Shown here piece after piece: positions 5,547-25,735 of a stretch of DNA of 64,000 nt. Where the stretch lies: assembly GCF_024223415.1 (NCBI RefSeq), contig NZ_CP100502.1; one strand, written 5' to 3'. A program made the translations under genes and the position numbers. The DNA comes from Escherichia coli. GTDB lineage: Bacteria; Pseudomonadota; Gammaproteobacteria; Enterobacterales; Enterobacteriaceae. The notes under the pieces are model-generated. The model was not told where the DNA came from and did no database searches. It saw only the letters and a list, made by a program, of their open reading frames with translations. Each line of letters begins with the position of its first letter. Position 1 is the stretch's first letter.

Positions 5547-5791
5547 GCTGCAGGCAGCCAGCTGTCGTCCTGCCAGATTTCTTCCAGCAGAGACAGGATA
5601 CGTTCTTTATCCTTGTCGTTGCGGGCTCCTGTGACAGATACAGACGGGGCGCTGCCCTGGTCTATACGCAGCCAGATTTCCGGGTAGTGTGGTTTCAGAC
5701 GTTGTTCGATTTCATTCTGTAGCGCCTGAAGTGTGCCTGATTTGAGGTTTTTTGTGCTCTGGCGGTCGAAAAGAATTTCAATGCGGATCAT
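5543..5791 (-). CDS. impC: ImpC, small first gene of the impCAB operon
   Basis: seq: 82-aa ORF overlapping the impA start. known: size and order match impCAB. Confidence 0.7.
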   Translation of the reverse strand: MIRIEILFDRQSTKNLKSGTLQALQNEIEQRLKPHYPEIWLRIDQGSAPSVSVTGARNDKDKERILSLLEEIWQDDSWLPAA

Positions 5792-19091: not shown

Positions 19092-19155
19092 TTAACCCTT
19101 GCCGTCTGCCTGTGCAGGCGGCAGGATACGTTCAGACATCTCACCAGGAGGAACC

Positions 19156-20097
19156 GTGAGTAAGAAGAAAAACACCACAACGCCCACGCCGCATGATGCC
19201 GCGTTCCGGTCGTTCCTGGCGAATCCCGACGTCGCCAGAGATTTTCTGGAACTGCATCTTCCTGCGGAGTACCGGCAGTTGTGCGACCTGTCCACGCTGA
19301 AGCTGGAACCCGCCACCTTTGTTGAGCCGGACCTGCATCAGTACGCCAGCGATATCCTCTGGAGCGTGAAAACCACCGGGGGTGAAGATGGTTATGTTTA
19401 TACGCTCATCGAGCACCAGAGCACCGAAAATCTGTACATGCCTTTTCGCATGTTACGCTACAGTGTGGCGGCGATGCAGAGACATCTGGAGCAGCACAAA
19501 ACGTTGCCACTGGTCATTCCGGTGCTGTTCTATCACGGTGAGCGCAGCCCGTACCCGTACAGCATGAACTGGCTGGACTGTTTTGAGAATCCGGCGCTTG
19601 CGGCTAAAATATACACAAAGCCGTTTCCGCTGGTTGATATCACTGTCGTTGATGACAATGAAATCATGAACCATCGCCGGATGGCCGCACTGACGCTGCT
19701 GATGAAGCATATCCGTCAGCGGGATATGCTGATGTGTCTGGACAACCTGGTCAGAGCACTGCAGGACATCCAGGATGAAGAGCAGATTACAGTTCTTTTC
19801 AACTATCTGCTTAATGGCAGCGAACATGTAACGGTTGAATTTTTGCAGACGCTGGCGCAGCGACTGCCGCAGCACGAGGACAGCATTATGACACTGGCAG
19901 AACGTCTTAAGCAGGAAGGTATCCAGCAAGGTATCCAGCAGGGTATCCAGCAGGGTATCCAGCAGGGAGTTCAGCAGGGGGCGCTTCAAAAAGCACGGGA
20001 AATCGCCCGGGAGCTCCGGAACGCGGGAATGCCGGCAGCACAAATCTGTCAGCTGACCGGACTTTCTGAAGCTGAACTGAAGAACATCACTCACTGA
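19156..20097 (+). CDS. rpn: Rpn-family (YhgA-like, PD-(D/E)XK) recombination-promoting nuclease
   Basis: seq: GTG 19156 with CAGGAGG RBS (track from 19099); N-terminal 'HDAAFRSFLANPDVARDFLELHLP...YASDILWSV...YTLIEHQSTE' matches the YhgA/Rpn family from memory. Confidence 0.75.
   Translation: MSKKKNTTTPTPHDAAFRSFLANPDVARDFLELHLPAEYRQLCDLSTLKLEPATFVEPDLHQYASDILWSVKTTGGEDGYVYTLIEHQSTENLYMPFRMLRYSVAAMQRHLEQHKTLPLVIPVLFYHGERSPYPYSMNWLDCFENPALAAKIYTKPFPLVDITVVDDNEIMNHRRMAALTLLMKHIRQRDMLMCLDNLVRALQDIQDEEQITVLFNYLLNGSEHVTVEFLQTLAQRLPQHEDSIMTLAERLKQEGIQQGIQQGIQQGIQQGVQQGALQKAREIARELRNAGMPAAQICQLTGLSEAELKNITH
19888..20097 (+). CDS. Candidate intragenic small protein (RpnS-like), in frame with the rpn C-terminus
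   Basis: seq: internal ATG 19888 preceded by GAGGA at 8 nt spacing; would encode 'MTLAERLKQEG(IQQG)n...ALQKAREIARELRNAG...'. infer: by analogy with Rpn/RpnS intragenic pairs. Confidence 0.3.
   Translation: MTLAERLKQEGIQQGIQQGIQQGIQQGVQQGALQKAREIARELRNAGMPAAQICQLTGLSEAELKNITH
19919..19978 (+). repeat. Five tandem 12-bp repeats (ggtatccagcag) encoding (GIQQ)n within rpn
   Basis: seq: ggtatccagcaa, ggtatccagcag x3, ggagttcagcag in tandem. Confidence 0.9.
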
Positions 20098-20359: not shown

Positions 20360-20611
20360 TCACACATCCTCTGCCGTTTCCCCCAGTTCATTTTCCAGAC
20401 GCCTGATGATATCTGCCTTGCGCATCCCCTGCATGTGAGGCAGCAGGTCACGGACTGAAAGTGCCTGGGTGGTCCTCCAGACGGTGACATCCACCTGTTC
20501 CGCATTTTCCCAGGCGTGCCATGTTCTCTGTGTCACGCCAAATTCTCTGGCCGCTTTTTCGCGTGACCAGAGCATGCTTTTTCGCCAGATTCGCAGTTCC
20601 CAGCCGGTCAT
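20360..20611 (-). CDS. Small helix-turn-helix regulator
   Basis: seq: 83 aa; 'REKAAREFGVTQRTWHAWEN' looks like an HTH; one of only two minus-strand genes in the leading region. Confidence 0.5.
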   Translation of the reverse strand: MTGWELRIWRKSMLWSREKAAREFGVTQRTWHAWENAEQVDVTVWRTTQALSVRDLLPHMQGMRKADIIRRLENELGETAEDV

Positions 20612-20625
20612 AAAACACCTTTGAA

Positions 20626-20712
20626 AAAGTGAAAAAACTTCACTTTATTTTATCACCATAACCACCAAATCAGCGCGAAAAATAAGTGTGAAAAAGTGAA
20701 GGAATTTCACTT
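20626..20712. promoter_or_regulatory. Two palindromic operator-like sites AAGTGAA-N5-TTCACTT upstream of the HTH gene
   Basis: seq: palindromes at 20627..20645 and 20694..20712. Confidence 0.4.
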
Positions 20713-20814
20713 TTTTTGATTGTAGGTGTCGTGCTGTTTTCTCTGTTTTCACCTGTGCGGGAGTGGTGTGCCAGTGACCACCACATGCCATTGTTGCGCC
20801 GTCGTTTTTCTTCA

Positions 20815-21140
20815 GTCGCGCCGGATGCGGCGCTCCCTGCACACCTTACGGTGTGTAAGGCCACTGCGCCTGATGGCGCAGCTGTCTCTGCCTGTCTGCC
20901 GCCGCACTGCGGCCTGTTCTCCGCAGATGGACTTTCCGGGGGTACATACACGACCACATCCCGTTTCAGTCGTCCAGGGGAGAGATGTACCAGCCACAAA
21001 ACTTTTTGCCGCAGGCGTCAAAAACTTTTGCGTCTGCCCCCGGACAACTGCCCCGTGACGTGGTGAGCGTCCCCCGTCGGAAAGGTCCACTGCGGGGAAA
21101 TCCCCGAAGACCCGGACGGCAGAAGGAGCTTCGCTCCTCC
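20815..21140 (+). repeat. Family-B ssi/Frpo-like repeat, copy B3 (5'-truncated)
   Basis: seq: matches the 3' two-thirds of B1/B2 from 'ggcgctccctgcacaccttacggtgtgtaagg' onward. Confidence 0.5.
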
Positions 21141-21187: not shown

Positions 21188-22039
21188 GTGATGAATCAGA
21201 CTTTACCCACTGCTGACCTGAATACTGCCGGCACGACAGATGTTATTCCGTCTGTGGCCATCGACCGCATCATCGCGCAGCGTAACGAAGGTATTGCACT
21301 GTTCATGCAGGCGATGGAATGCCTGGCGACAGCGCGCAGGATTCTGCTTGATGCGTCAGGTGATATTTTTCTTTACGGTTTTGAAGACTGCGTGACCGAC
21401 TCCGTTCGGTGCATGGATAAACCGGAAGAAGCGAAAAGGAATATCACCCGTCTTGCCGACCGGAAAATCTGGGACCGCCTGATGACGGATACGGGGATGT
21501 ACACCTTCATGAGTTCATGTCAGCGTGATGAGTGGAACAGCCAGCTGATGAGCGACACCTGTCCTGAAATCACCCTGGACAATGTACTGGCAACTTTTCG
21601 CCATCTGAATGCCAGTAAGATGCAGACATTTGAACAGGGACTGATTGATGTCTACCGGAAATTGTCATGGGATTACAGAACCAATAATCCCTGCCGTCTG
21701 GGCAAGAGAATCATTATTGAAAACCTGCTGTACCGCTGGAGTAACGGGCGTGTTACGCTGGACTGCAGCGGACGGGAGGCACTGGATGACCTGGTACGTC
21801 CGTTTTATCTGCTGGAGGGGCGCAACGTTCCTGACTTCCGGAGCAGCATCGGGGCGCAGTACGGTGAATTTATCGGGAACGGCGACAATGTCGGTAAGCT
21901 GTTAGAAGGGGAATATTTTACGGTGCGTGGCTACCAGAAAGGGACCGTACACATTGTCTTTAAGCGTCCTGACCTTGTTGAAAAACTGAATGATATTATT
22001 GCACGGCATTATCCTGGTTCATTGCCGCCACGAGTCTGA
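21188..22039 (+). CDS. Hypothetical protein, oriT-proximal leading-region gene
   Basis: seq: 283 aa with GAGGAG RBS, directly after copy B3. Confidence 0.5.
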   Translation: MMNQTLPTADLNTAGTTDVIPSVAIDRIIAQRNEGIALFMQAMECLATARRILLDASGDIFLYGFEDCVTDSVRCMDKPEEAKRNITRLADRKIWDRLMTDTGMYTFMSSCQRDEWNSQLMSDTCPEITLDNVLATFRHLNASKMQTFEQGLIDVYRKLSWDYRTNNPCRLGKRIIIENLLYRWSNGRVTLDCSGREALDDLVRPFYLLEGRNVPDFRSSIGAQYGEFIGNGDNVGKLLEGEYFTVRGYQKGTVHIVFKRPDLVEKLNDIIARHYPGSLPPRV

Positions 22040-22050
22040 TTAAACAGAAA

Positions 22051-22080
22051 AGCCCTGGTATTTATGCCGGGGCTTTTTTT
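22051..22080 (+). terminator. Rho-independent terminator
   Basis: seq: 'agccc...gggct' stem followed by a T7 run just after the 21188..22039 stop. Confidence 0.5.
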
Positions 22081-22123
22081 CTGTAATCATCATAATATCA
22101 GAACATGATGTGACATTGTCACA

Positions 22124-22459
22124 TCAATTGTTGTTCATATCGATGCCATCTTTCCTGGCTGAATCTGTCTTTTTAGATGCTGTTTTAGAGGAAGAACGGC
22201 GGGATGGCTTTTTCGATTCTGCTTCCCGAATAATGTCACGAAGTGCCTTCTCTCCTACTTCATACCCTGCATTTTTGAGCGTATCACGAACATCTGCCAG
22301 TGTATAACCCTTTGTCCTTACCAGAACAATAATGTCATCACGAATGGCATCAAGAAAATCACGCAATGTTTTCCGTTGAGCGGTGAGATCTGGCAATTCC
22401 GATAAAGCAGCTTTTGCCAGCTGGATGTCATCATCTGAGTAAAATTTTTTAGAAGCCAT
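22124..22459 (-). CDS. Hypothetical protein with Lys/Ser/Arg-rich C-terminal tail
   Basis: seq: ATG 22459 with GGAGAG upstream (track GTG 22465); tail 'KKPSRRSSSKTASKKTDSARK' is histone-like; transcribed divergently from nikA. Confidence 0.4.
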   Translation of the reverse strand: MASKKFYSDDDIQLAKAALSELPDLTAQRKTLRDFLDAIRDDIIVLVRTKGYTLADVRDTLKNAGYEVGEKALRDIIREAESKKPSRRSSSKTASKKTDSARKDGIDMNNN

Positions 22460-22586
22460 TGGCACTTTCTCTCCGTTTCATGTTGAAGTCTGATTTTATC
22501 ATCAAAAACTGACTCCTGGCAGGGCTGCGCCCTGCCTCTGCCGTCTGCATAAGACTATGATGCACAAAAATAACAGGCTATAATGG

Positions 22587-22648
22587 CCTGAAAAACGGGA
22601 CAGGATGTGCAATTGTAATACCGTCACACGCGACGCTATTACAATTGC
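22587..22648 (-). other. oriT: Origin of transfer (oriT) core with 17-bp inverted repeat and nic region
   Basis: seq: minus-strand 'ggtattacaattgcacatcctgtcccgtttttcagg' with arms 22609..22625 and 22632..22648. known: from memory the R64 nic lies in 'CATCCTG|TCCCG'; position upstream of nikA fits. Confidence 0.6.
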
Positions 22649-22692
22649 CATCTGGTCAGGGCTTCGCCCCGACACCCCGTAAGGAGCCTGAA

Positions 22693-23025
22693 GTGAGTGA
22701 TAGTGCGGTAAGAAAGAAAAGTGAGGTACGGCAAAAGACAGTTGTCAGGACACTCAGATTCTCTCCTGTTGAGGATGAAACCATCAGGAAAAAAGCTGAA
22801 GATTCCGGACTTACTGTATCTGCTTACATCCGAAATGCAGCACTGAATAAGCGAATTAACTCCCGTACAGATGATGCTTTTCTGAAGGAGTTAATGAGAC
22901 TGGGAAGGATGCAGAAGCATCTGTTTGTTCAGGGAAAAAGAACCGGTGACAAGGAATACGCAGAAGTGCTTGTTGCCATAACCGAACTTACAAATACATT
23001 GCGTAAACAGTTAATGGAAGGTTGA
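22693..23025 (+). CDS. nikA: Relaxosome accessory protein NikA
   Basis: seq: GTG 22693 with AAGGAG RBS gives 110 aa 'MSDSAVRKKSEVRQKTVVRTLRFSPVEDETIRKKAEDSGLTVSAYIRNAAL', matching R64 NikA in size and sequence from memory. Confidence 0.85.
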   Translation: MSDSAVRKKSEVRQKTVVRTLRFSPVEDETIRKKAEDSGLTVSAYIRNAALNKRINSRTDDAFLKELMRLGRMQKHLFVQGKRTGDKEYAEVLVAITELTNTLRKQLMEG

Positions 23026-23035
23026 GGATTCTCCG

Positions 23036-25735
23036 GTGAATGCAGTCATTCCGAAAAAGAGAAGGGACGGCAAGTCTTCGTTCGAAGACCTGGTATCCTA
23101 CGTCTCTGTCCGGGATGACATGACCGATGAGGAACTGGATTTATCTTCTTCTTCGCAGGCTGAACAACCGCACCGAAGCCGTTTCAGTCGCCTTGTTGAT
23201 TATGCGACACGTCTTCGAAATGAGTCATTCGTGGCGCTGGTTGATGTCATGAAGGACGGCTGCGAATGGGTCAACTTTTATGGTGTCACCTGCTTTCATA
23301 ACTGTACTTCTCTTGAAACTGCCGCTGCAGATATGGAGTACATTGCCCGGCAGGCACACTATGCAAAAGATGACACTGATCCTGTTTTTCACTACATCCT
23401 TTCCTGGCAGTCACATGAAAGCCCGCGTCCGGAACAGATTTATGACAGTGTACGTCATACGCTGAAATCACTCGGCCTTGCCGACCATCAGTATGTCTCT
23501 GCCGTGCATACTGATACAGATAATCTGCACGTCCATGTGGCTGTTAACCGGGTACACCCTGAAACGGGTTATCTGAACCGGTTATCCTGGAGTCAGGAAA
23601 AACTCAGTCGTGCCTGCCGTGAGCTTGAACTGAAGCATGGTTTTGCTCCGGATAACGGTTGCTGGGTCCATGCACCGGGAAATCGTATCGTTCGCAAAAC
23701 CGCCGTTGAACGTGATCGCCAGAACGCGTGGACACGCGGGAAAAAACAAACTTTTCGCGAGTATGTCGCGCAGACAGCGGTCGCTGGTTTACGCAGTGAA
23801 CCTGTAAATGACTGGTTATCCCTGCATCGTCGTCTTGCGGAAGATGGTCTGTACCTGTCTCAGATGGACGGAAAATTTCTGGTGATGGATGGCTGGGATC
23901 GCAACAGGGAAGGTGTACAGCTTGACTCGTTTGGTCCCTCCTGGTGTGCAGAAAAACTCATGAAAAAAATGGGTGACTACACGCCAGTACCAAAAGACAT
24001 TTTCAGCCAGGTGGAAGCACCAGGACGCTATAATCCGGACTTCATTGCCGCTGATGTTCGCCCGGAAAAAATCGCTGAAACAGAAAGTCTGCAGCAGTAT
24101 GCCTGTCGTCATCTTGGAGAACGTCTGCCGGAAATGGCACGGGAAGGACGGCTGGAAAACTGCCAGGCTATTCACCGCACACTGGCTGAAGCGGGATTAT
24201 GGATGCGTGTTCAGCATGGTCACCTGGTTATCTGTGACGGTTATGATCATAACCAGACTCCCGTTCGTGCTGACAGCGTATGGTCGCTGCTGACGCTCGA
24301 CAATGTGAATCAACTCGATGGTGGCTGGCAGCCTGTACCAACAGATATTTTCCGCCAGGTTACGCCAACAGAACGCTTCCGTGGTCGTCGTATGGAGAGC
24401 TGTCCTGCGACCGATAAAGAATGGCACCGTATGCGTACAGGCACGGGGCCGCAGGGGGCTATCAAACGCGAACTGTTTTCTGACAAAGAAAGTCTGTGGG
24501 GATACAGCATCAGCCATTGTAGCCCTCAGATTGAAGAAATGATCACACAGGGTGAGTTTACCTGGCAGCGTTGTCATGAGCTGTTTGCACAACAGGGACT
24601 GATGCTACAGAAACAACATCACGGGCTTGTTGTCGTTGATGCCTTTAATCATGAGCAAACGCCGGTGAAGGCCAGCAGCATTCATCCTGATCTGACACTG
24701 GGGCGTGCAGAGCCACAGGCCGGACCTTTTGTGAGTGCCCCAGCAGATTTGTTTGACAGGGTGCAACCTGAAAGTCGCTATAACCCGGAGCTGGCTGTCA
24801 GTGACAGGTACGGGGTCAGCAGTAAACGTGACCCAATGCTGCGCCGGCAGCGACGTGAAGCCAGAGCTGAGGCCCGTGCTGACCTGCGTGCCCGCTATCT
24901 GGCATGGCGTGAACAATGGCGTAAACCAGATCTGCGTTATGGGGAACGTTGTCGGGAAATTCATCAGGCATGCCGTCTGCGGAAGTCACACATTCGTGCG
25001 CAGTACGATGATCCGGCATTACGTAAGCTGCATTATCACATTGCAGAAGTTCAGCGAATGCAGGCATTGATCAGGCTGAAAGAAGACATCAGGGATGAGC
25101 GACAGAAACTTATTGCTGATGGGAAATGGTATCCACCCTCTTACCGTCAGTGGGTCGAAATTCAGGCTGCTCAGGGAGACAGGGCTGCTGTATCGCAGCT
25201 GAGAGGCTGGGATTATCGCGATCGCCGTAAAGACAGGTCACGCACAACGACGACAGACCGCTGTGTCGTGCTTTGTGAACCGGGCGGAACGCCGGTATAC
25301 GGTAATACCGGTGATCTCGAGGCCCGTCTGCAGAAGAACGGGAGTGTTCGTTTCCGTGACCGTCGGACGGGAGAGTTTGTCTGTACGGATTATGGTGACA
25401 GGGTTGTTTTCCGTAATCACCATGACCGCAATGCGCTGGCAGATAAACTGGATTTGATTGCACCGGTATTATTCGGGCGTGATCCACGCATGGGTTTTGA
25501 ACCAGAAGGAAACGACAAACAATTTAACCAGGTCTTTGCTGAAATGGTTGCCTGGCATAATGTGACAGGCCGTACCGGTCACGAAGACTACAGGATTACG
25601 CGACCGGACGTGGATCATCACCGTGAAGGAAGTGAACGCTACTACCGCGATTATATCGCGGCGAACAGCAACAATGACGCATCACTGCCTCCGCCGGAGC
25701 AGGATAAACGCTGGGAACCGCCTTCTCCAGGTTAA
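23036..25735 (+). CDS. nikB: Relaxase NikB
   Basis: seq: 899 aa right after nikA; His-rich motif 'HTDTDNLHVHVAVNRVHP'; size matches R64 NikB. Confidence 0.9.
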   Translation: MNAVIPKKRRDGKSSFEDLVSYVSVRDDMTDEELDLSSSSQAEQPHRSRFSRLVDYATRLRNESFVALVDVMKDGCEWVNFYGVTCFHNCTSLETAAADMEYIARQAHYAKDDTDPVFHYILSWQSHESPRPEQIYDSVRHTLKSLGLADHQYVSAVHTDTDNLHVHVAVNRVHPETGYLNRLSWSQEKLSRACRELELKHGFAPDNGCWVHAPGNRIVRKTAVERDRQNAWTRGKKQTFREYVAQTAVAGLRSEPVNDWLSLHRRLAEDGLYLSQMDGKFLVMDGWDRNREGVQLDSFGPSWCAEKLMKKMGDYTPVPKDIFSQVEAPGRYNPDFIAADVRPEKIAETESLQQYACRHLGERLPEMAREGRLENCQAIHRTLAEAGLWMRVQHGHLVICDGYDHNQTPVRADSVWSLLTLDNVNQLDGGWQPVPTDIFRQVTPTERFRGRRMESCPATDKEWHRMRTGTGPQGAIKRELFSDKESLWGYSISHCSPQIEEMITQGEFTWQRCHELFAQQGLMLQKQHHGLVVVDAFNHEQTPVKASSIHPDLTLGRAEPQAGPFVSAPADLFDRVQPESRYNPELAVSDRYGVSSKRDPMLRRQRREARAEARADLRARYLAWREQWRKPDLRYGERCREIHQACRLRKSHIRAQYDDPALRKLHYHIAEVQRMQALIRLKEDIRDERQKLIADGKWYPPSYRQWVEIQAAQGDRAAVSQLRGWDYRDRRKDRSRTTTTDRCVVLCEPGGTPVYGNTGDLEARLQKNGSVRFRDRRTGEFVCTDYGDRVVFRNHHDRNALADKLDLIAPVLFGRDPRMGFEPEGNDKQFNQVFAEMVAWHNVTGRTGHEDYRITRPDVDHHREGSERYYRDYIAANSNNDASLPPPEQDKRWEPPSPG

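Follow-up and report, generated by a model that had tools for sequence, protein, structure and literature searches.

The stretch of Escherichia coli DNA analysed here (64,000 nucleotides of contig NZ_CP100502.1, NCBI RefSeq assembly GCF_024223415.1; called the window below) is an IncI1 plasmid. The gene under study, yggA, is the first gene of the IncI1 leading region, and its coding sequence of 111 codons plus stop lies on the minus strand at 22124..22459, next to the origin of transfer (oriT). Across oriT and divergent from yggA are nikA (22693-23025, plus strand), which encodes a relaxosome accessory protein according to the ColIb-P9 annotation and a Pfam NikA-like match (2e-22), and nikB (23036-25735, plus strand), annotated in ColIb-P9 as the relaxase gene. 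A DUF4942 gene (21188-22039, plus strand) converges with yggA. Over the 661 bp around yggA, the window shares 99.8-100% identity with ColIb-P9 and with hundreds of IncI1 plasmids from E. coli, Salmonella and Shigella. The analysis points to a DNA-binding protein with a helix-turn-helix (HTH) core, whose presumed regulatory target is nikA together with nikB.

The yggA gene and its start codon

The list of open reading frames (ORFs) and their translations place the ATG of yggA at 22459-22457 and its stop codon at 22126-22124. The same coding sequence is annotated in ColIb-P9 by the Prokaryotic Genome Annotation Pipeline (PGAP) as a hypothetical protein (WP_000157098.1) with the same ATG start. 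A first-pass annotation made from the letters alone had proposed a 111-aa gene here that starts about 130 bp from the oriT core and is transcribed away from nikA. The start and stop codons, the translation, the ColIb-P9 record and the selection on the core described below all agree that this gene is real; its ATG and the edge of the minimal oriT are ~131 bp apart, and its minus-strand orientation makes it divergent from the plus-strand nikA-nikB. An in-frame GTG at 22465, two codons upstream of the ATG, would give a protein of 113 aa, but neither the IncB/O nor the IncK2/Z sequence has an equivalent of this GTG. Homologues from IncB/O, IncK2/Z and plasmids further away share the ATG as their start and have none upstream of it, so the better alternative start that the first-pass annotation had allowed for was not found. 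The sequence GGAGAG, 9 nt upstream of the ATG (22469..22474, minus strand), reads as a Shine-Dalgarno element, and a GGAG-type motif occupies the equivalent place in IncB/O and IncK2/Z. Neither the overlapping ORF at 22110-22307 (plus strand, 65 aa) nor the other small ORFs across the locus had support.

The name yggA is used in the R64-style records LC567080 and LC567070, whereas in many older records the product is wrongly called 'molybdopterin-guanine dinucleotide biosynthesis protein MobC'. This label is a mistake of annotation that goes back to the gene symbol, and thousands of entries bear it (e.g. the homologue entries P0003 and P0011 and the plasmids CP043738 and CP074613). Some YggA homologues are named 'mobilization protein MobC' instead. 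Neither MobC name is backed by a model or a fold.

Conserved core and drifting basic tail

The gene was compared with its orthologues on IncB/O, IncK2/Z, Salmonella diarizonae and Enterobacter hormaechei plasmids (n=4). Against these four diverged lineages, the ratio of nonsynonymous to synonymous substitution rates (dN/dS) was 0.04-0.17 over core codons 1-82, with synonymous sites near saturation, and 0.4-1.6 over the last 29 codons, which form the tail. yggA is thus a real gene whose core is under strong purifying selection; the low dN/dS of the core, together with the synteny found in 12 loci, places the ORF far beyond chance.

The tail (aa 83-111; 22127..22213, minus strand) is basic, rich in Ser and Thr and predicted from its composition and model scores to be disordered. 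It has a net charge of +6 and an isoelectric point (pI) of 10.6, with nine Lys and Arg residues against three Asp and Glu; the pI is 5.1 for the core and 9.4 for the whole protein. Its basic string KKPSRRSSSKTASKKTDSARK corresponds to residues 83-103. What follows the core is likewise basic (net +2 to +6) and Ser/Thr-rich in 11 of 12 diverse homologues, and their core is acidic to neutral. Since dN/dS is high in the tail while its composition is kept, the sequence of the tail appears to drift freely but its basic character does not. The histone-like tail of the first-pass annotation holds in so far as the tail is basic; the resemblance is compositional only, and the conserved part of the protein is the HTH.

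Predicted fold of YggA

Two AlphaFold2 models of YggA, built from alignments of 12 and 57 sequences, both contain helices at aa 9-20, 32-48 (kinked), 54-63 and 70-82. The predicted local distance difference test score (pLDDT) is 82-90 over aa 31-80 and 51-58 in the tail, which has no secondary structure. The conserved core (aa 1-82; 22214..22459, minus strand) comprises the N-terminal helix at aa 9-20, an LPDL motif and the predicted tri-helical HTH at aa 32-48, 54-63 and 70-82. The models and the profile alignment register described below identify aa 70-82, EKALRDIIREAES (22214..22252, minus strand), as the predicted recognition helix. It contains R74, which is invariant in close homologues, and in the register it lies opposite helix alpha-3 of StbA, with R74 opposite StbA R61. 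The YggA profile searched against PDB sequences (hmmsearch) matched the C-terminal HTH of sigma-54 from Aquifex (E=6e-4) and StbA 7pc1 (E=0.04).

The core of YggA is therefore most likely, as far as the models can tell, an HTH DNA-binding domain of the type found in sequence-specific regulators, and YggA very probably binds DNA. Scans of YggA and seven homologues and comparators against Pfam, NCBIfam and PHROG gave no model above threshold, only scattered weak HTH-like matches.

A small family always found at oriT

A HMMER search of 1.8 billion cluster representatives returned 79 relatives at E<=1e-3, a number that marks the YggA family as small. The first-pass annotation had left the assignment to a homology search; the search yields a YggA/Orf35 family, though one without a Pfam, NCBIfam or PHROG model. 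In a tblastn-type translated search of 72,556 plasmids, yggA was found in 3,556 records. YggA is 97-100% identical to thousands of IncI1 entries, and the records below 60% identity include IncL/M (pOXA-48 type), Serratia, Enterobacter, Pseudomonas syringae and Tatumella plasmids. The tblastn matches to Orf35-type proteins of IncL/M plasmids have 38-44% identity over aa 1-78; homology of Orf35 to R64 YggA has been stated before, with 32% identity and 53% similarity (PMC6112013). Three frameshifted or chimeric sequences (P0039, P0053 and P0058) were left out of the homologue set.

In all 12 loci fetched, the leading side of oriT starts with the yggA homologue, which diverges from a nikA-like gene (often named mobA) and a MOBP relaxase gene, and this synteny with nikA-nikB reaches P. 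syringae and Tatumella. The spacer between yggA and the nikA-like gene measures 190-450 bp in these loci and contains an oriT-type inverted repeat of 17-19 bp. No stbB-like ATPase gene stands beside yggA in any of them, so that yggA appears to be monocistronic. Annotation seems to have set the starts of both the nikA-like gene (mobA) and the yggA homologue too far upstream in plasmids of the pOXA-48 type and their relatives (L002 3409-3936 and 3971-4366; L006 2375-2794; L007 2423-2815). These N-terminal extensions do not occur in other family members and would leave hardly any room for oriT.

Relation to StbA, TraK and other proteins

Family alignments were built and compared by hhalign profile-profile scores. 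The YggA family scored 66.7% against the StbA family (E=5e-5, 80 columns), 42% against the TraK family (E=2.6e-4, 46 columns, confined to the HTH) and 38% against YciA of R721 (E=3.4e-4, 43 columns). The controls, which were the unrelated small HTH proteins ArdK, KorA and an Xre-type regulator, reached only 0.1-0.6% (E 0.1-0.55, 5-26 columns). Within the comparison group, the StbA family scored 96.6% against R721 YciA (E=5.4e-10, 55 columns) and 29% against the TraK family (E=5.7e-4, 72 columns). All matches of the YggA family fall in one register, in which G51, L61, G65 and R74 stand opposite G38, L48, G52 and R61 of StbA. Judged by these alignments, remote homology of YggA to StbA and TraK is probable, if unproven.

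StbA is encoded by the first gene on the leading side of the R388 oriT, divergent from trwA-trwB-trwC. This HTH repressor recognises repeats beside oriT; deleting it increases conjugation 50-fold and makes the plasmid less stable (PMC3098194). Its N-terminal HTH is conserved, and the C-terminal half, which is poorly conserved and in part disordered, is required for repression to be complete (bioRxiv 10.1101/2022.04.29.490116). Guynet et al. used iterated PSI-BLAST to connect StbA with TraK_RP4, MobC_pTF-FC2 and YciA_R721, which have a similar position (PMC3098194); IncI1 (MOBP12) and IncL/M are not among the plasmid groups listed for StbA homologues. StbA, TraK and YciA resemble YggA in being products of the first leading-region gene, facing the relaxase operon. 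StbA of R388 (PDB 7pc1) and its superfamily (StbA_R46, YciA_R721, TraD_NAH7) are, however, 135-175 aa long against the 111 aa of YggA, and YggA does not match the NCBIfam model StbA_2. StbA is needed for plasmid stability, whereas published transposon sequencing (Tn-seq) suggests that YggA is not. No operon partner of the StbB/TraL type, with a deviant Walker-A ATPase, was found for yggA, the next gene being the convergent DUF4942 gene. Since both this partner and a direct-repeat array are missing, we do not file YggA in the StbA family but only regard it as working alike.

Orf35 from pCTX-M3 (IncM) and its counterpart in the IncL plasmid pOXA-48 share with YggA the position, the divergence from nikA-nikB, the size class and the layout of a core followed by a basic tail. 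The operons that they face differ: in IncM plasmids nikAB heads a long tra operon, while in IncI1 plasmids nikAB is a separate two-gene operon far from tra.

TraK of RP4 and R751 (PF17273/DUF5338) has the position and orientation of YggA at oriT, binds oriT and is of similar size. Its gene is followed by traL, for an StbB-like ATPase, and traM, and the protein has a proline-rich linker and a C-terminal GFTFDATPKKEDLL motif. This motif is absent from the YggA family alignment, and YggA has no PF17273 match at E<=1, although one of the 57 family members matches DUF5338 at E=0.004. TraK is described as promoting relaxosome formation, whereas the homologue of YggA acts as a negative factor.

MobC and sigma-54 are further from YggA. 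At oriT, mobC of the RSF1010 type likewise diverges from the relaxase gene, but MobC of the RSF1010/ColE1 type is a ribbon-helix-helix protein, while YggA is predicted to be an all-helical HTH protein with no N-terminal beta-strand; YggA matches none of the MobC models (PF05713, NCBIfam). With the DNA-binding C-terminal domain of sigma-54 (RpoN; 2ahq, 2o8k), YggA has only a generic HTH scaffold in common: the RpoN box (ARRTVAKYR) is not conserved, YggA having EKALRDIIRE in its place, and no other sigma-54 regions are present.

The oriT and the putative regulatory region

Two sets of repeats next to nikA define the oriT of R64 (PMC3817090). In the window, the minimal oriT (22590..22681) comprises the nick region, a 17-bp inverted repeat (22609-22625 / 22632-22648) and an 8-bp inverted repeat (22655-22662 / 22666-22673). 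We place the nick in the minus strand at ~22600/22601, at a distance of 8 nt from the 17-bp repeat, between ACATCCTG and the following T; the ATG of yggA is 141 nt from this position. Col-type plasmids of 1.5-5 kb from E. coli, Klebsiella and Salmonella keep only the part corresponding to 22592-22681 (78-97% identity) and carry neither nikAB nor yggA. They are presumably oriT hitch-hikers mobilised by plasmids of the I-complex. As they retain only this part, the yggA-proximal DNA lies outside the cis-acting transfer origin. A different arrangement was seen in NZ_CP083485.1, an E. coli plasmid of 10,410 bp that has a 100% identical copy of yggA, which suggests that fragments of the IncI1 oriT region that include yggA enter small plasmids.

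The spacer between yggA and nikA was aligned among five diverged plasmids. A consensus scan predicts a yggA promoter at 22493..22522 (minus strand), with the -35 element CTGCCA at 22522-22517 and the extended -10 element TGaTAAAAT at 22501-22493. The columns TGnTAnnAT are invariant in the five plasmids, and each of these has them 41-45 nt before the yggA start. A CATTATA block is invariant as well, and TATAAT (22579..22584, plus strand), just on the leading side of the nick, is a candidate -10 element of nikAB, back-to-back with the yggA promoter. TATAAT, a candidate drawn from the alignment, has no good -35 element and was not called by the consensus scan. TATAAT stands on the leading side of the nick and nikA on the trailing side. 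If TATAAT is the nikAB promoter, the promoter and its operon would be at opposite ends of the linear transferred strand, rejoined only on recircularisation.

The block GACGGCAGAGGCAGGGCGCAGCCCTGCCAG, conserved between the extended -10 element and TATAAT, holds a GC-rich 8-bp inverted repeat, GGCAGGGC-gca-GCCCTGCC (22518..22536), found by the repeat finder and overlapping the yggA -35 element. Compensatory, paired G>T and C>A changes occur in both of its arms in the S. diarizonae and E. hormaechei plasmids, so that its symmetry is preserved. The repeat resembles the 8-bp oriT repeat beside nikA (22655-22673), and the motif occurs twice in the oriT region; near-matches at 5645 and 18425 lie inside coding sequence and were taken as chance, as were the direct repeats D1-D4 of the region, which are short, two-copy and mostly in coding sequence. 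On sequence grounds, this GGCAG-containing repeat is the best candidate for an operator. It could equally be a structural hairpin of the transferred strand, such as a signal for priming or for the termination of transfer. No other hairpin of the single-stranded leader is as stable (z = -3.07), and the repeat lies 65-83 nt from the 5' end of the transferred strand, outside the minimal oriT.

The strand on which yggA enters the recipient

The single strand that enters the recipient serves as template for the transcription of leading-region genes (PMC3817090, PMC12672017). As ardA and the DUF4942 gene, which belong to these genes, lie on the plus strand, the transferred strand must be the minus strand of the window. 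It runs 5' to 3' from the nick towards lower coordinates and is the sense strand of yggA, so that yggA can be expressed only from duplex DNA. The first-pass annotation had correctly placed yggA on the strand that is not the template in the transferred DNA, and it had presumed a donor-side function. No transcription is indeed possible from the transferred strand, but a function confined to the donor is too narrow, as the gene can also be expressed in transconjugants after synthesis of the complementary strand.

Genetics of homologues and transposon screens

The phenotype of a homologue is known from IncM. In pCTX-M3, replacement of orf35 by cat (orf35::cat) left self-transfer unchanged and increased mobilisation of an oriT plasmid >100-fold (PMC6112013), while nikA, nikB and traH mRNA rose ~40-, 23- and 80-fold, respectively (PMC6112013; reviewed in PMC8125031). 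As nikAB heads the tra operon in IncM, loss of Orf35 also derepresses genes of the type IV secretion system. Repression of the tra operon dependent on orf35 was proposed, and Orf35 was described as lacking a known DNA-binding motif (PMC6112013). A helper construct without orf35 and with no cassette at the locus also mobilised ~100-fold better (PMC7440800).

In a Tn-seq study of the IncI1 plasmid pESBL, YggA (as Hp23) scored 0.99 as non-essential, 0.00 for maintenance and 0.01 as required for transfer (PMC4288162). The yggA-type gene of an IncB/O/Z plasmid is not listed as required in transposon-directed insertion-site sequencing (TraDIS; PMC10286972), and the counterpart in pOXA-48 was not flagged by Tn-seq (PMC12365149). 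A Tn-seq screen for pESBL stability found only the parAB region (PMC7602700). In the RNA sequencing paper on early conjugation of pESBL, Hp23 appears only within the standard for quantitative PCR. The first-pass annotation had considered a relaxosome accessory factor; as a required factor this is not supported, given the pESBL transfer score and Orf35, which is dispensable for transfer and whose loss raises nikAB expression and mobilisation.

Other features of the region

A hairpin with a GC-rich stem formed by AAAAGCCCTGGTAT and ATGCCGGGGCTTTT, with A and T runs on either side (22048..22084), was found by the repeat finder and by reading the sequence; it did not appear in the terminator scan, which applied a stricter rule. 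It is likely to be a bidirectional terminator for the DUF4942 gene and yggA, and sharing this terminator would make yggA monocistronic. A perfect 10-bp palindrome, TGATGTGACA/TGTCACATCA, at 22106-22126 overlaps the yggA stop codon. Further into the leading region, an ORF of the Rpn family of recombination-promoting nuclease/transposase-like proteins (19099-20097) has four tandem QQGI repeats near its C-terminus. A gene for a small HTH regulator (20360-20611, minus strand) with an adjoining small ORF (20645-20842) runs, like yggA, opposite to the leading-region genes.

Discussion

We propose that YggA acts close to oriT as an HTH repressor, with the divergent nikAB and yggA promoters as its targets, a function that we regard as moderately probable. 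YggA would bind specific sites in the ~230-bp region between its own start and nikA, and binding at the inverted repeat 22518-22536 would repress the back-to-back yggA and nikAB promoters, so that relaxase expression is kept low in established hosts. The tail would probably add non-specific contacts to phosphates or help neighbouring monomers to cooperate, by analogy with the C-terminal part of StbA. With the sense strand of yggA being the one transferred, the repressor would be made in a recipient only after synthesis of the complementary strand, and this delay, deduced from strand logic, could give each new transconjugant a repressor-free period. The proposed repression is carried over from Orf35, which has ~30-38% identity to YggA, and the promoters and the operator are predictions; the gene itself, its conserved synteny, the predicted HTH fold and the phenotype of the IncM homologue are the firm elements on which the proposal is built.

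Several observations weigh against this proposal. The confidence of the models is moderate (mean pLDDT 72-75, predicted template modelling score 0.42-0.44), and Foldseek against the PDB gave no significant match, the best E being 0.4 with calmodulin-like helical matches leading; StbA came out at E=2.6, yet with the top TM-score of 0.63. The profile link to StbA (hhalign 67%) is below the usual thresholds. The second GC-rich repeat is not present in the distant loci, including IncL/M, which do have the NikA-type 17-19-bp repeat, and consequently no operator can be defined for the whole family. A direct-repeat array like stbDR is not present between yggA and the nick. Repression of nikAB is known only for Orf35, and the role of IncI1 YggA in mobilisation is described as unstudied (PMC6112013). 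As the tra operon is fused to nikAB in IncM but not in IncI1, the regulon and the phenotype may differ. TraDIS of the I-complex revealed no conjugation repressor (PMC10286972); a change in self-transfer would not be expected of such a repressor, however. Finally, orf35 supplied in trans lowers mobilisation only slightly, and only under special conditions.

Of the other explanations, the one that survives best, although we consider it fairly unlikely, is that YggA is an architectural component of the relaxosome like TraK. It overlaps with the repressor proposal: YggA would coat or wrap the DNA from the nick to yggA and modulate nicking or unwinding, with a stimulatory or an inhibitory effect but without being essential, and any effects on transcription would be a by-product of its presence on the promoters. 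The position and orientation of yggA are those of IncP traK, TraK binds the DNA from nic to traK (cited in PMC3098194), and the title of Furuya & Komano 1991, cited in PMC3817090, describes the R64 and IncP oriT as alike in global organisation. The weak TraK profile similarity (42%), in the same GY...I...G register, and the single DUF5338 match at E=0.004 point the same way; a basic disordered tail would suit non-specific wrapping of DNA, and the phenotype of the loss in IncM concerns mainly mobilisation of oriT plasmids. Transfer does not need the protein in IncI1, IncB/O/Z, IncL or IncM, however, and its loss raises mobilisation instead of lowering it. The minimal oriT of the hitch-hiking plasmids leaves out the DNA that would be wrapped next to yggA, and YggA has neither a TraK/DUF5338 match at E<=1 nor the C-terminal motif of TraK. 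Moreover, NikA and NikB are enough for nicking of the R64 oriT in vitro.

The weak complementation by orf35 makes it possible that the phenotype of the homologue is an effect in cis of the removal of DNA beside the nikA promoter, or of divergent transcription, and that the protein has another role or none. All the published alleles do remove DNA at this place. We nevertheless consider this improbable, since the core is under purifying selection, the ~79 cluster representatives are always at this locus and the fold is that of a DNA-binding protein. In addition, orf35 is toxic or disturbs growth in cells with pCTX-M3 but not alone, which implies a trans-acting product.

Marginally less probable still is a positioning or segregation protein of the StbA type that works without StbB, tethering the oriT region to the nucleoid and balancing inheritance against conjugation. 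StbA is both the best structural and the best profile match of YggA, the two-domain layout and the genomic position are the same, and the loss of StbA raises conjugation as the loss of Orf35 raises mobilisation. The maintenance score of 0.00 in pESBL and the stability screen that found only parAB (PMC7602700) argue against such a role, as do the type Ib ParAB system that IncI1 has of its own and the lack of an stbB-like ATPase gene and of stbDR-like arrays upstream. The least probable reading is a non-specific, histone-like nucleoid-associated protein acting through its Lys/Arg- and Ser-rich tail, as the first-pass annotation had entertained and the overall pI of 9.4 would allow, because selection acts on the acidic HTH core and not on the tail, no model of HU, IHF, H-NS, Fis or another nucleoid protein matches, the tail has no AT-hook or SPKK-type motif, and the strict linkage to oriT-nikAB points to a local and specific role.

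The repressor proposal can be extended to a bolder version, which we think rather unlikely, in which YggA and Orf35 form the MOBP12 branch (IncI1, B/O/K/Z, L/M) of an ancient StbA/TraK/YciA superfamily of oriT 'gatekeepers', a branch that has lost the ATPase and serves as a delayed negative-feedback timer. If this were true, yggA would enter the recipient first, on a strand that cannot be transcribed, and would stay silent until the complementary strand is made. Each new transconjugant would then pass through a burst of relaxase expression and onward transfer before repression sets in, and YggA would spread cooperatively over the DNA near the nick, or wrap it, by means of its basic tail.

The gene, its location and the phenotype of its homologue have already been published, so that our results are a refinement and not a discovery. 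What appears to be new, with respect to the literature searched, is the HTH assignment and the link of YggA and Orf35 to the StbA/TraK class. [quoted passage not shown] Deletion of yggA might improve mobilisation tools based on IncI1, as the deletion of orf35 did for IncM. The HTH fold and the link to StbA and TraK give a testable mechanism for the 100-fold derepression that follows removal of the IncM homologue, and they suggest that control of the relaxase operon by a divergent HTH protein encoded beside oriT is common to most MOBP and MOBF plasmids.

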